A DNA stretch of 64,000 bases from Dictyostelium discoideum (lineage: Eukaryota). The notes under the pieces are model-generated. The model had not been told where the DNA came from, searched no databases, and saw only the letters and a program-made list of their open reading frames with translations. Each line of letters begins with the position of its first letter. Position 1 is the first letter of the stretch. Positions 39,396 through 46,728 of the stretch are shown here, one piece after another. The position numbers were made by a program, and so were the translations under genes. The DNA lies in the NCBI GenBank assembly GCA_000004695.1, contig CM000151.3, forward strand, positions 3,264,001-3,328,000, in the 5' to 3' direction.

Positions 39396-40331
39396 ATGAA
39401 CGAAATAGAAGTTGATAATTTATCTCATACCAATAAAAATGTTGCAACTGATAATATTAATAATAACAATAATGATATAGAATTAGAAACAATACCAAAC
39501 GATAGTAATAATAGTAATAATAATAATAATAATAATAATAATAATAATAATAATAATAATAATAATAATAATAATAATAATAATAGTAATAGTAACGATA
39601 TAGAATTAGAAACAGAACCTAATAATAGTAATAATAATAATAATAATAATAATAATAATAATAATAATAATAATAATAATAATAATAATAATAATAATAA
39701 TAATAATAATAATAATAATAAAAATGAAAATAATAATAAAATTAAAAATGAAAAAATAAATATATTATTATCAATTAAGTTATATTTTATTCAATATTTT
39801 AAGAAATGGAAAGGTGGAGAGAAATCACCAGTTAGAGCAGATCTTGAAGAGATTGGATGGTCATGGTTATCTTCATTTATTGGTATATTGGTATTAGCAT
39901 TATTACATTATAGGGTAACTGTTGAAAAAGAGACTATATTTTTACTAGGTTCATTTGCAGCATCTGCTGTATTAATTTTTGGTGCTCCAAAATCACCATT
40001 AGCTCAACCAAGAAATTTAGTACTTGGACATATAGTATCAGCAACTGTTGGTTCAATCATTAGAGTTGCATTGGTTTATACAAATGCTCAAACTGAAGTA
40101 GCATGTGCTTTAGCGGTCAGTTTAGCAATTGTCGGAATGCATTTCACAAAATCAATACATCCACCTGGTGGTGCCACTGCCTTGATTTGTGTTATGAGTG
40201 CCGAGCAACGTTGGAGAGGTTTTTATTATATATTCGTACCTGTGGCATCAGGTTCTTTAACAATGTTATTAACTGCATTAATTGTTAATAATTTTGCAAG
40301 AAAAAGAAAGTATCCTGTATTTTGGTGGTAA
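39396..40331 (+). CDS. HPP-family integral membrane protein (311 aa) with N-terminal poly-N extension
   Basis: ATG at 39396. The eponymous motif 'SIHPPGGATALI' is present. The TM-rich C-terminal half is 'WSWLSSFIGILVLALLH...LGSFAASAVLIFGAPKSPLAQPRN...'. The first ~130 aa are N/S-rich, encoded by (AAT)n. Confidence 0.8.
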   Translation: MNEIEVDNLSHTNKNVATDNINNNNNDIELETIPNDSNNSNNNNNNNNNNNNNNNNNNNNNNNSNSNDIELETEPNNSNNNNNNNNNNNNNNNNNNNNNNNNNNNNNNKNENNNKIKNEKINILLSIKLYFIQYFKKWKGGEKSPVRADLEEIGWSWLSSFIGILVLALLHYRVTVEKETIFLLGSFAASAVLIFGAPKSPLAQPRNLVLGHIVSATVGSIIRVALVYTNAQTEVACALAVSLAIVGMHFTKSIHPPGGATALICVMSAEQRWRGFYYIFVPVASGSLTMLLTALIVNNFARKRKYPVFWW

Positions 40332-40461
40332 TTAAATTAATAATAATAATAATAATAAATAATAATAATAATAAATAATAATAATAATAAATAATAATAA
40401 TAAATAATAATAATAGTTAGTAATAATAAAATAAAAAAATTTAAATTATATGTTATACACC

Positions 40462-40468
40462 CCCACAA
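40462..40468 (+). promoter_or_regulatory. DUSE-like motif (CCCACAA) of the type found ~60 bp upstream of Dictyostelium ncRNA genes
   Basis: 'acaCCCCCACAAtttg' lies in the HPP-AACS intergenic region, and a T11 run follows at 40631-40641. See the findings. Weak on its own. Confidence 0.25.
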
Positions 40469-40774
40469 TTTGTAATTATCCTTATTTTTTAATTTATTTT
40501 TTATTTTATCTGATTGGTTCAAAATTTAAATAAAGATAATAATAATAAAAAAAAATTAAAAATAAATTAATTAATATTGTATATCGCAGTTAATAGTGGT
40601 TATAAATCTACACCAGATTTAATAATTGTTTTCCACCTTTTTTTTTTTTACTTTTATTATTTATTTTATTTTATTATTTAGTTATTATTTTTTTTAAACT
40701 TTTTTTATATAAAACTATTATTTGTTTTATTTTAATATCATTTTATTTAATAATACATATATTACCTTATAAAA

Positions 40775-42899: not shown

Positions 42900-43265
42900 A
42901 TAGGTTCATTTGCAGCATCTACTGTATTAATTTTTGGAGCACCAAATCACCATTAGCTCAACCAAGAAATTTAGTATTTCGACATATAGGTTCAATCATT
43001 AGAGTGCATTTGGTTTATACAAATGCTCAAACTGAAGTAGCACTCTTTAGCGGTCAGTTTAGCAATTGTCGGGATGCATTTCACAAAATCAATACATCCA
43101 CCCGGTGGTGCCACTGCCTTAATTTGTGTTATGAGTGCTGAACAATGCTGAAGAGGTTTTTATTATATATCCTTACCTGTGGCATCGGGTTCTTTAGGAA
43201 TGTTACTAACCTCATTAATTGTTAATAATTTTACAAGAAAGAGAAAGTATCTGTATTTTGGTGGT
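42900..43265 (+). pseudogene. Degenerate duplicate of the 3' half of the HPP-family gene
   Basis: 'ggttcatttgcagcatctactgtattaatttttggagcaccaaatcaccattagctcaaccaag...atacatccacccggtggtgccactgcc...' aligns to 39948-40330 but carries indels and stops. The same (AAT)n follows and a DUSE-like remnant sits at 43383. It is part of a tandemly duplicated [HPP 3' + AACS] unit. Confidence 0.8.
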
Positions 43266-43761
43266 AATTAAATTAATAATAATAATAATAATAAATAATA
43301 ATAATAATAATAAATAATAATAATAATAATAATAATAAAAATAAAAATAGCTAGTAATAATAAAATAAAAATATTTAAATTATATCTTATACACCCCAAT
43401 TTGTAATTCATCTTTATTTTTTTATTTTATCTTATTGGTTCAAAATTTAAATAAAGATAAGATACATAATAAAATTTTTTAAAAAATTAAATACATGTTA
43501 TAATGTTTTAGATATTCATATGAAAAATCCATTAAAAATAGATCAAGATGCATTAATTTATGAATGTCCGTATTAAAGTTTTTTTTTTTCAATGTTTTTG
43601 AACCAATAGGATAATATTAATTATTACAAATATATGTAAAAAAAGGTTATAAATCCCATACCCAATTTGTTAATTGTTTTAAACTTTTTTTTTTTTATGT
43701 ACCATTATTTTTTTTTTTATTATTATTTTATTTTATTAATATCGTTTAATTTAATAAAAAA

Positions 43762-45770
43762 ATGTATAAATTTAACTATGAAAATGAAATTGATTTAGCA
43801 AATAACAGACCAATAGAATTTTGGGATGAAGTTGCAAAGGATTTAGTTTATTGGTAAGTTTTTATTTCTTTTTTTTATTTTTTCAATTGTCATTGCAAAA
43901 AACTAATAATTTAAAATTAAAAAAAAAGGGATAGAATGTATGATAAAGTTTATAGTGGTGATGAAATTTATCCAGATTGGTTTAAAGGTGGTGAATTAAA
44001 TACATGTTATAATGTTTTAGATATTCATATAAAAAATCCAGAAACAAGAGATCAAACTGCATTAATTTATGAATGTCCATTTTTAAACAAAAATATAAAA
44101 TTAACCTATTATCAATTTTATGAAAAAGTATGTGAATTTTCAAGAGTACTTTTAAATTTAAATATATCAAAAAATGATAATGTTTTAATTTATATGTCAA
44201 ATACAATTGAAGCACCAATTGCAATGTTATCATGTGCTCGTATTGGTGCAACTCATTGTGTGTTATTCGATGGTTATTCAGTTAAAAGTTTAATAGATAG
44301 AATTGAAACAATTACACCAAAATTAATAATTACAACAAATTATGGTATTTTTAATGATGAAATTATTACATTTACACCAAATTTAAAAGATGCAATTGAA
44401 TTATCAACTTTTAAACCAAGTAATGTAATTACTTTATTTAGAAATGATATTACAAGCGAATCAGATTTAAAGAAAGTAAATGATATACCAACGATACCAA
44501 ATACATTAAGTTGGTATGATGAAATTAAAAAATTCAAAGAAATTAATCAATTACCATTTTATGAATATGTTCCAGTAGAATCAAGTCATCCATTATATAT
44601 AATATATACAAGTGGCACAACTGGTAGTGCTAAAGCAGTTGTTAGAAGTAATGGTCCATATATGGTAGGTATTAAATATCAAACATTGATACAAAAGGGT
44701 AAAATAAAAGTTGTGTTTTCTCATACAAGTATTGGCTGGGTATCATTTCATAATCTATTATATGGTTTATTTTCAGTTGGATATACATTAGTTATGTCTG
44801 AAGGAGGAGTGACAAAACCAAAACATATGGAAGATGATATTTGGGAAATTATTGAAAGAAATGAAGTAAGTTGTGCATTCACAATGGCTAAAGCAATTAG
44901 ATACTTAATTAAAGTTGATCCTGATTGTAAAAATTTACATTCAAAGTATGATTTATCTAATTTAAAAGAAATGGTACTTGGTGGAGAACCAATTGAAGAA
45001 TCAATTTCAAATTATATTCAGGAGAAATTAAAAGTTCAATCAACTCGTGTATATGGTCAAACTGAAACAGGTGTCGTTTATTTTTAGGTTTTGATAATAA
45101 AAATTTAAAAATTCCAATTAATACATGTGGAGTTTCATTTCCATCTTTAAAAGCAAAGGTTTTTTCAGATGATGGTAAGGAATTACCTTTGTATGAAATT
45201 GGTGAGCTTGTATTTAAATTACCTTTACCACCAGGTTTTACAACTACATTTTATAAAAATGATGAAAAGTTTAAACAATTATTTACAAAATTTCCAGGTT
45301 ACTATTACCCTGGTGATTTAGGATTTAAAGATGAAAATAATTGTTATGGTGTTGTTTCAAGATCAGATGATCAAATTAAAATCAGTGGTAATAAAGTTCA
45401 ATTAAATAAAATTGAAACATCAATTTTAAAACATCCATTAGTTTTAGAATGTTGTTCAATAGGTATTAATAATCCAGATTGTTATAATGTACCAATTGGT
45501 ATATTAGTTTTAAAACAACAAGAAGAAAATCAATCAATTCGACAAATTGATTTAAATAAATTACAATCTGAAATTAATACAATAATATCAAAGGATATAG
45601 AAAATTTTGCAATTTTAAGAAAAATTTTAATAGTTCCACAATTACCAAAAACTAAAGTTGGTAAAACTCAAAGACAAATCATTTCTAAATATTTAAATGA
45701 TACAAATTTTCAATTACCAGATAATGTTTGTGATGTTGAAATCTTTTATAAAATTAAAGATTTATAATAA
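43762..45770 (+). pseudogene. AACS-like pseudogene I (duplicate of H) with in-frame TAG and frameshift
   Basis: - Exon 1 (43762..43853) and its intron are intact.
- Exon 2 from 43929 reads through to 'YGQTETGVVYF*' at 45087. There H has 'tatttttattgttatgattat', I has 'tatttttaggttttgataat': a TAG plus a 1-nt deletion.
- The homologous C-terminus continues in another frame (ORF 45189..45767).
- An orphan fragment of the AACS N-terminus (NTCYNVLDIHMKNPLKIDQDALIYECPY*) also sits at 43470-43570. Confidence 0.75.
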
Positions 45771-46728
45771 TGTTAAATAATAATAATAATAATAATAATA
45801 ATAATAATAATAATAATAATAATAATAATAATAATAATAATAATAATAATAATAATAATAATAATAATAATAAATGAGTATCTTTTGAAAGTTTGTTTTT
45901 ACTAAAAAATTTAAAAATTTTCAAATTTAATATTAAATAAAATTACCAAAAATTAAAAAAGTAAAATATTAACCTCTAATATGGAAAAATTATTAAAAAC
46001 ATTTTTTTTTAATTAGGATTAGAATAGTGTTAAATTAAAAAATTAAAAAAATAAGAAATAAGTTAATATAAAATTCAACCCAATGTATATATAAATTACC
46101 CATTGTGGTTTTTACCCCCTCCCCCATGTGTTTTTTTATATTTTAATTTTTAATTAAAAGAATTATTATTAATTTTTTAAAAATTAAAAAAAAAAAAAAA
46201 AAAGATAATAATATAAAATTCAAGTACTTGAAAAGGTAAAAAAAAAACAAAATAAAAAAAAAAAGATTAAAAATGATTTACCTACATAGAAAGGGGGTAA
46301 TAATTTCACCATTAAGGGACAGACATAAATGAAATCAATTAATATTTAAAAAAAAAACAATATATTTTCATTTTTTCATTTTGATTATTAATAATTAAAA
46401 ATACAATTTACTTTTTTAAAGTACATAAAAATACCTTTTTTAAAAATAATTTCAAAAAAGTAATATCTATAGGCTTAATTAGAATGAAATTAAATAATAT
46501 TTTAATTATTAAAAAGTCTAAAGATATCTCAAAACAATTAAATGACGTCGTAAAATTTTTATTTTTTAAATTTTTTTTTTTATTAAATGTAAATATTATA
46601 TGAAGAGTTATCAATTTTAAATTATAAAAAAAAAAAAAAAAAAAACTTATATTTACATTTTTTATATAATCCAATATTATTGAAAATTTTAATAATAAAA
46701 ATATATTTTTATAAAAACTATTAAAATA

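Follow-up and report, generated by a model that had tools for sequence, protein, structure and literature searches.

Tandem duplication of an acyl-CoA synthetase gene with part of its HPP-family neighbour in Dictyostelium discoideum, and the fate of the second copy

In a 64,000-nucleotide stretch of the Dictyostelium discoideum genome (GCA_000004695.1, contig CM000151.3, positions 3,264,001 to 3,328,000; 22% G+C), hereafter called the window, the 3' part of an HPP-family gene and the complete acyl-CoA synthetase gene following it are present twice in direct succession. The locus is very probably a non-processed tandem segmental duplication within an acyl-CoA synthetase gene cluster on chromosome 2, the second copy of which is disabled in the AX2/AX4 line. 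The synthetase genes of the first and second unit are termed H and I, respectively; all positions are counted within the window unless another sequence is named (Table 1). Self-comparison with blastn returned two matches, 39943-40573 against 42898-43493 (86.9% identity, E = 0) and 40682-42869 against 43667-45870 (91.4%, E = 0), the units being collinear at 87-91% identity across approx 2.9 kb. A base-by-base alignment of the two halves proposed as a repeat in the initial annotation confirmed a direct repeat far beyond chance and refined its boundaries. Each unit opens with the 3' end of HPP (its final 384 nt in unit 1 and 365 nt in unit 2) and an (AAT)n tract; a box of 16 nt and a conserved block of 27 nt come next, followed by the two-exon synthetase gene and a further (AAT)n tract. 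With gaps excluded, the identity is 92.1% for the HPP piece (4 gap events), 93.8% between HPP stop and conserved block, 92.4% for exon 1, 85.2% for the intron and 92.9% for exon 2. Adjacent and in the same orientation, the units are collinear in their coding and non-coding parts (85-94% per segment), with the exception of a rearranged promoter stretch. At the junction between them, HPP sequence and (AAT)n tract have a 2-nt 'TA' in common. Unit 2 gives way at 45874 to the original right flank ('gagtatc...'), which adjoins the single synthetase gene of a related genome (L004, see below) as well, where the gene is followed by 'atgagtatctc...', the sequence found 3' of unit 2, and where the downstream intergenic DNA aligns to 46086-46797. 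Collinear alignment, retained intron and this right flank together bear out a tandem duplication of the composite of HPP 3' part and synthetase gene. The copied segment would comprise at least 2.96 kb, reaching from inside HPP through its 3' flank and the whole synthetase gene to an AT-rich trinucleotide tract. A processed pseudogene (retrocopy) was ruled out for copy I, because the intron, located at the same position with a GTAAGT donor, and the collinear flanks are kept; moreover, the copy adjoins its parent.

Two further assemblies labelled D. discoideum (L002 and L003) presumably represent, in either order, CR116C and OT3A, listed as the other two D. discoideum isolates in PMC12745789. 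Both show approx 4% substitution divergence from the window and carry HPP, H, I and the synthetase genes J and K in the same order. The duplication is common to these two wild isolates and copy I is intact in both, encoding 648 and 647 amino acids; an exact-sequence look-up of the two I open reading frames (ORFs) gave no match. The decay of copy I is confined to the AX2/AX4 lineage. L004 and L005, two assemblies labelled D. cf. discoideum, belong to cryptic sister lineages (PMC12745789); each has one H/I-type gene after HPP and no HPP fragment. A duplication independent of the one described here has affected this locus in D. citrinum (L006 4098-12113): two synthetase copies (5598-7655 and 10001-12047, 98.9% identical) are located on either side of an HPP gene that is intact.

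Lesions of copy I were called from a codon alignment with five intact relatives (AX4 H as well as H and I of L002 and L003), in which only two private indels were found. A single T lost from a TAT codon (TTT TAT GGT to TTT TA GGT) creates an in-frame TAG and a frameshift at once and cuts the gene at codon 416 of 648, while a 2-bp deletion close to the 3' end brings the stop codon forward. TAG and frameshift had both been seen in the initial annotation, but they are one lesion, and the separate 2-bp deletion had not been listed. With both deletions repaired, an ORF of 648 codons with no other stop is obtained. The 225 codons 3' of the frameshift are open in their own frame, the other two frames containing 17 and 39 stops (chance approx 9e-11 at this composition). 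A private Gly>Ala exchange affects the last Gly of the YTSGTTGxxKG motif, which is kept in all five relatives. Branch-polarised counts of nonsynonymous and synonymous changes are 28/19 for AX4 I and 22/15 for AX4 H, a ratio of 1.47 for both. Since this ratio equals that of H and no long period of relaxed constraint is visible, the inactivation appears to be recent relative to the branch, and the changes of copy I in the AX2/AX4 line are probably recent altogether. Relaxed selection on AX4 I was considered, as its pairwise ratio of nonsynonymous to synonymous rates is slightly higher (0.42-0.47 versus 0.31-0.32 for H), and was rejected, since the branch-polarised counts give no such signal.

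The locus is also covered by a separate assembly (GCA_054883475.1, L001) that spans window positions 30766-52782. Over these 22 kb, one substitution and a few homopolymer-length differences were found, none of them within 39850-45900. The lesions are base-identical in this de novo assembly from a different project and are not sequencing errors. The refutation foreseen in the initial annotation therefore fails, and it is hardly conceivable that they arose as sequencing or assembly errors of the AX4 reference and that I is functional, even though the main lesion is a single-base loss beside a T5 run, an error-prone context; furthermore, copy I has acquired other, independent changes, namely an insertion upstream, the degradation of the box and the 2-bp deletion. 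ORF lesions relative to intact orthologues that are not artefacts, as expected of a duplicated pseudogene, are found in AX4 I.

For copy I, no AX4 protein model was among the homologues returned, whereas the neighbouring genes have models. In L001 (12988-14993), automatic annotation assigns a 622-amino acid product (P0004) to it, using a predicted 62-nt intron that skips the lesion. The donor of this intron is GTGTCG, compared to GTAAGT in the real intron, and its removal deletes 21 residues from the Gly of YGQTETG on. In our view, P0004 is probably an annotation artefact, with the frameshift hidden by an invented intron. That copy I still yields protein in AX strains, either via this intron or by a -1 slip on T TTT TAG that would bring back the reading frame at the cost of a Tyr>Leu exchange, is very improbable. 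P0004 is a predicted product of this kind, no stop interrupts the frame 3' of the lesion, copy I still has its TATA-like block, T run and splice sites, and TAT TTT TAG would allow tRNA-Phe to re-pair one base back. However, an open downstream frame is equally expected of a very young pseudogene, the donor is non-consensus, the Gly of YGQTETG would be lost along with the other deleted residues, and the Gly>Ala exchange affects a position kept by all five relatives. No frameshift-stimulatory element was seen, with no search aimed at one. A pseudogene inactivated recently in the AX2/AX4 line is the preferred interpretation of copy I.

The order of events was assessed by a neighbour-joining tree on exon 2 with bootstrap and by 45 diagnostic sites at which H and I are fixed for different states. 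One clade unites the three I genes (100%) and another the three H genes (93%), and the L004 gene groups with H (86%). At the diagnostic sites, the L005 gene has 18 H and 22 I states and D. citrinum 16-17 H and 24 I states, the mixed pattern expected of an outgroup. In the L004 gene, 34 H and 8 I states were counted. From these data we infer that the duplication took place after L005 and D. citrinum split off and before AX4, the two wild isolates and L004 diverged, and that L004 later lost unit 2. Alternatively, L004 might never have had copy I, either because a copy-number polymorphism was sorted among the lineages or because the duplication occurred after the L004 split and H-like states arrived by introgression or conversion. 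The 86% support and the lack of any unit 2 remnant in L004 would be in line with such a history. It is nevertheless unlikely, as most of the H-derived states are present in L004 at positions for which L005 and D. citrinum have the ancestral (I) state, and as the functional HPP gene of L004 has both derived states that arose after the HPP fragment had been copied. Loss of unit 2 in L004 is preferred here.

The HPP piece of unit 2 covers only residues ~185-311 and is disrupted by indels of 1, 15, 2 and 1 bp, among others, and by a TGG>TGA stop, as stated in the initial annotation. Its length differs between strains: 365 bp are left in AX4, approx 125 bp in L002 (plus a further internal deletion) and 0 bp in L003, where H is followed by (AAT)n and then at once by the sequence normally found 3' of the HPP stop, the box and copy I. 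The composite unit is regarded as present in AX4, L002 and L003 with the HPP piece eroded to different degrees, because L002 keeps part of the piece and L003, though devoid of it, retains the post-stop sequence, box and I. The fragments of AX4 and L002 have one derived C>T in common, and both keep two ancestral states since changed in the functional HPP genes of the clade; they therefore go back to one event of origin. In both strains, the 5' edge of the fragment adjoins (AAT)n, yet at different HPP positions (39948 versus ~40130). The earlier claim that the breakpoints fall inside a neighbouring gene holds insofar as the unit begins within HPP; the present HPP edge marks a minimum extent and not necessarily the original breakpoint, since its position varies among strains and the (AAT)n tract that it adjoins is unstable. 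A duplication that carried the whole of HPP or more, its 5' edge being made by later deletion from the (AAT)n side, deserves consideration but is rather improbable. The differing edges against (AAT)n, the missing fragment in L003 and the D. citrinum duplication, which spans a larger, rearranged segment around an intact HPP gene, would suit such an origin. On the other side, none of the strains examined retains more of HPP than AX4, and the AX4 junction has the simple 2-nt microhomology of a primary illegitimate junction. A break within HPP is thus favoured over a larger original unit.

Short gene-conversion tracts are exchanged between H and I. While 50 informative quartet sites favour orthology, 11-13 favour identity of H and I within a strain, and the latter are clustered. 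The longest identical run over polymorphic sites was evaluated by a permutation test of our own (GENECONV-like, ignoring rate variation among sites). Within-strain H/I runs gave p = 0.0006 for AX4, and those of L003 and L002, which are located elsewhere, gave p = 0.0004 and p = 0.015, respectively, compared to p = 0.88 and 0.28 (not significant) for orthologue pairs. The AX4 tract (coding sequence 1485-1628, i.e. 42320-42463 and 45320-45463) is located 3' of the frameshift and is nearer to the I orthologues than to the H orthologues; the now-dead copy I may have been the donor to the live H and might, more speculatively, still act as one. In both AX4 copies, a small tract replaced Leu-Lys by Glu-Thr at codons 69-70; an orphan exon 2 scrap upstream of I has kept the older state.

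The following course of events would account for the locus. A segment of at least 2.96 kb was copied head to tail, which produced an HPP fragment devoid of a promoter and a further, complete synthetase gene. The HPP fragment would have been dead on arrival and later eroded to differing extents, probably through deletions in which the (AAT)n tracts on its flanks took part. H and I would then have persisted under purifying selection, trading short conversion tracts, until unit 2 was presumably lost again in L004 and, in the AX2/AX4 line, copy I acquired an altered upstream region, the 1-bp deletion and the 2-bp deletion at the 3' end. Gene birth and death in progress, as put forward in the initial annotation, is borne out by related genomes at the pre-duplication, both-intact, fragment-erosion, recent-pseudogene and full-loss stages.

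Several points weigh against this reconstruction. The dS values between H and I (0.13-0.17) are barely above those between orthologues (0.11-0.13), and the dating is blurred by gene conversion and by the 86% bootstrap value for L004 with H. The original left breakpoint is uncertain, as the fragment edge lies at (AAT)n and differs between AX4 and L002. L001 is probably the de novo Nanopore and Illumina assembly of AX2-214, an identification derived from PMC12745789 and sequence identity. For the age of the frameshift, the separation of AX2 and AX4, which it precedes, is the only bound. Judged from its truncation, copy I would make no functional enzyme in laboratory strains, yet it still has its splice sites and a core promoter-like block (TATAAAT and T run).

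Table 1. Features of the duplicated locus (positions in the window)
Feature	Position	Strand	Description	Basis
HPP-family gene, intact	39396-40331	+	311 amino acids	ORF; Pfam PF04982 TM_HPP, E = 2.6e-53
Unit 1	39948-42902		2955 bp	base-by-base alignment
HPP part inside unit 1	39948-40331	+	codon ~185 to stop	alignment; tblastn of HPP residues 195-309 matches unit 2
(AAT)n	40338-40434		3' of HPP stop, unit 1	TRF
Conserved box	40461-40476	+	CCCCACAATTTGTAAT; upstream of H
Conserved block	40513-40539	+	ATTGGTTCAAAATTTAAATAAAGATAA; 27 nt; CCAAT on complementary strand and AATAAA; in both units and all discoideum-clade loci
Synthetase gene H, intact	40775-42779	+	647 amino acids; exon 1 40775-40866, intron 61 nt, exon 2 40928-42779	gene model
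(AAT)n	42763-42902		unit 1/unit 2 junction	TRF and alignment
Unit 2	42903-45873		2971 bp, head to tail after unit 1	base-by-base alignment
HPP pseudogene fragment	42903-43267	+	without start codon; indels and TGG>TGA stop	alignment, tblastn
(AAT)n	43274-43373		3' of HPP fragment, unit 2	TRF
Degraded box	43392-43407	+	CACCCCAATTTGTAAT; unit 2	gapped alignment: 3-bp deletion
Insertion	43461-43644	+	~184 bp in promoter region of I; replaces 58 bp of unit 1 (40540-40597)	alignment
Orphan synthetase exon 2 scrap	43485-43577	+	93 nt; codons ~53-82; direct copy	repeat search and tblastn
Inverted copy of 43410-43445	43596-43631	-	36 nt, within insertion; 78% complementary, exact TTGGTTCAAAA core
Synthetase pseudogene I	43762-45767	+	exon 1 43762-43853, intron 75 nt, exon 2 43929-45767
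In-frame TAG	45085-45087	+	T lost from TAT codon; stop and frameshift in one	codon alignment
2-bp deletion site	45762-45763	+	TAA (45765-45767) five codons early	codon alignment
(AAT)n	45764-45873		end of unit 2	TRF

The sequence between the HPP stop and the synthetase gene differs most between the units. Within the window, the box is found only in unit 1 and, in degraded form, in unit 2. In the other discoideum-clade loci it occurs with at most one mismatch upstream of H and I, and it is absent in D. citrinum; upstream of I it is perfect in L002 and L003 and degraded in AX4 only. Located approx 130 nt 3' of the HPP stop and approx 140 nt from the TATA-like block, it could be part of either the synthetase promoter or the 3' end of HPP. 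The box was initially described as DUSE-like and as degraded in the repeat. The consensus of DUSE is reportedly [AT]CCCA[CT]AA, and the core of the box, CCCACAA (40462-40468), corresponds to the DUSE core with a 7/8 core resemblance. DUSE is a CCC-core motif approx 60 nt upstream of a non-coding RNA start or of a TGTG box (AAATGTG) (PMC7919456). Neither a TGTG box nor the class I 11-nt motif was found in either intergenic region, and no Rfam match was obtained at E<=1 across 38000-52500. While the presence of the box and its degradation in unit 2 stand, the DUSE reading lacks the expected context and was rejected, as was a non-coding RNA gene at this site.

A TATAAAT block with a long T run (40598-40652 and 43645-43697) precedes H in every locus of the discoideum clade and has been kept upstream of pseudogene I. 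A TATA box followed by an oligo-T run is the classical layout of RNA polymerase II promoters in Dictyostelium, and the block is probably the core promoter of H and I. The insertion immediately upstream of it in unit 2, including the orphan scrap, is private to the AX line and absent from the intergenic regions of L002 and L003. The scrap had been reported at 43470-43570 as derived from the 5' end of the synthetase gene; it does exist, but consists of an exon 2 piece near, not at, the 5' end (Table 1). Its best match is copy I of L003 (96.7%), and it keeps the ancestral Pro-Leu-Lys, where AX4 H and I carry Pro-Glu-Thr instead. No donor can be named, because the segment is 87-97% identical in all paralogues. 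The insertion as a whole is a patchwork of nearby sequence in both orientations, which might be the trace expected of template switching during repair. In L002 (12297-12492), an extra segment of approx 175 bp, bounded by the direct repeat 'aaaataaaaacatttaaa', is located between HPP fragment and box; it holds a stretch resembling the last synthetase codons (caaagatttatataat). In L005 (12040-12330), approx 900 bp of unrelated sequence with an ORF-like stretch and a long (AAT)n, without counterpart in the window, separate the single H-type gene from the conserved flank 3' of it.

The spliced product of H matches AX4 DDB_G0273215 and DDB_G0273709 exactly, which assigns the window to chromosome 2 of strain AX4. 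It contains the Pfam domains ACAS_N (E = 3.6e-16), AMP-binding (E = 1.9e-54) and AMP-binding_C (E = 6e-13), and the core motifs YTSGTTG, YGQTETG and C-terminal PKTxxGK are kept in the family; with these three domains and motifs, H is an ANL (acetyl-CoA-synthetase-like) adenylate-forming enzyme. The genes had initially been labelled as acetoacetyl-CoA synthetases, a designation that found no support. With NCBIfam, acetate-CoA ligase models scored 353 and 352.5 bits and the propionate-CoA ligase model 346.5 bits, all under their cut-offs (353 versus 725, 346 versus 955), while the acetoacetate-CoA ligase models scored far lower (TIGR01217, 178.6 bits, cut-off 520.9; NF002937, 207 bits, cut-off 639). 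On these scores the acetoacetyl-CoA synthetase identity was rejected, and the genes are termed acyl-CoA synthetases here, without a named substrate, because the scores are far below every equivalog cut-off. The H/I family resembles acetate/propionate-CoA ligases (AcsA, PrpE, ACSS3-like) in the ACAS_N, AMP-binding and AMP-binding_C architecture and in the motifs, and its nearest non-dictyostelid relatives (~34% identity) are named propionyl-CoA synthetase. Unlike those ligases, it is a dictyostelid-specific expansion with many paralogues and scores far below the equivalog cut-offs.

According to tblastn, the window contains seven synthetase copies or remnants on the minus strand and H, I, J, a 5' fragment and K on the plus strand. 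In a remnant at 49309-49680, exon 1 contains a stop and is followed by the intron and by exon 2 up to approx codon 108, which likewise contains a stop. The best full-length matches of this remnant are the genes located between J and K in L004 (603-amino acid model, 84.4%) and L003 (split gene, 83.7%); the gene at this position in L005 (652-amino acid model) matches at only 74.9%, and no counterpart was found within the L002 alignment. This looks like a further gene death in the same cluster. On the minus strand, the copies at 24758-26122 and 31581-33946 appear broken in tblastn, one lacking residues ~399-564 and the other split over frames, at approx 50-60% identity. Two other minus-strand copies (14820-16823 and 19558-21561) are 98.4% identical in exon 2, far closer than any other pair in the window, which suggests a very recent duplication or conversion. 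In D. citrinum, a second repeated piece (L006 4098-4444 versus 7919-8291, 82%) suggests a larger, rearranged unit.

In the intact HPP protein, the Pfam match covers profile positions 3-157 of 157, the HPP domain comprising residues 147-307, and the N-terminal half is rich in poly-Asn. This half (39396-39830 in the window) varies in length, the called products of the window and of L002 to L005 having 311, 283, 285, 265 and 292 amino acids, which is consistent with (AAT)n instability within the coding sequence. A gene of the CfaA/B/C (counting-factor-associated) family at 38300-38893 adjoins HPP. Quantitative PCR primers published for DDB_G0273217 (labelled K5, PMC7078664) map to 38396-38416 and 38475-38494. 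This primer pair was the only match in the searchable literature, in which no published account of the synthetase/HPP locus or its gene identifiers was found.

The (AAT)n tracts bracketing each element of the unit could act as recombination substrates and make the combination of HPP fragment and synthetase gene a reversible copy-number cassette in the D. discoideum clade. This idea, which is tentative and at present speculative, is based on the shortened fragment in L002, its disappearance in L003, the missing unit 2 with an (AAT)-like scar in L004 and the independent gain in D. citrinum. If it were general, the exceptional microsatellite load would drive gains and losses of genes in this genome, and the locus provides a concrete place for asking whether trinucleotide repeats mediate these processes in Dictyostelium. 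The locus is a compact, fully resolved example of birth and death across successive stages in related genomes. For users of the standard laboratory strains, it implies that these are without a working synthetase paralogue kept by divergent wild isolates, and it flags the 622-amino acid model as a pseudogene masked by an invented intron.

The same genomes have been studied at the tgrB/tgrC loci (Holland et al., PNAS 2025, PMC12745789), where local duplications, partial gene fragments and recombination between paralogues are likewise found. In contrast to this allorecognition locus, the turnover at the synthetase/HPP locus is modest and syntenic. AX3/AX4 laboratory strains also carry a large duplication of chromosome 2 that is absent from AX2 (PMC12745789), and we read the two gene identifiers of H as placing the window inside it. 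That duplication is tandem and on the same chromosome, too, but laboratory-recent and far larger, whereas the 3-kb duplication of H and I is old (approx 7-8% divergence) and common to wild isolates. The process itself is well known, and the locus offers no new kind of element or mechanism; what makes it valuable is that the stages form a complete series and that (AAT)n may play a part. As in other non-processed pseudogenes derived from tandem duplication, the copies are collinear and head to tail, introns and flanks are kept, part of a neighbouring gene lies at the junction, and disabling indels followed in one copy. There is no difference in kind from typical duplicated pseudogenes; here, some lineages keep the second gene intact, in one it is dead and in another it has been deleted.

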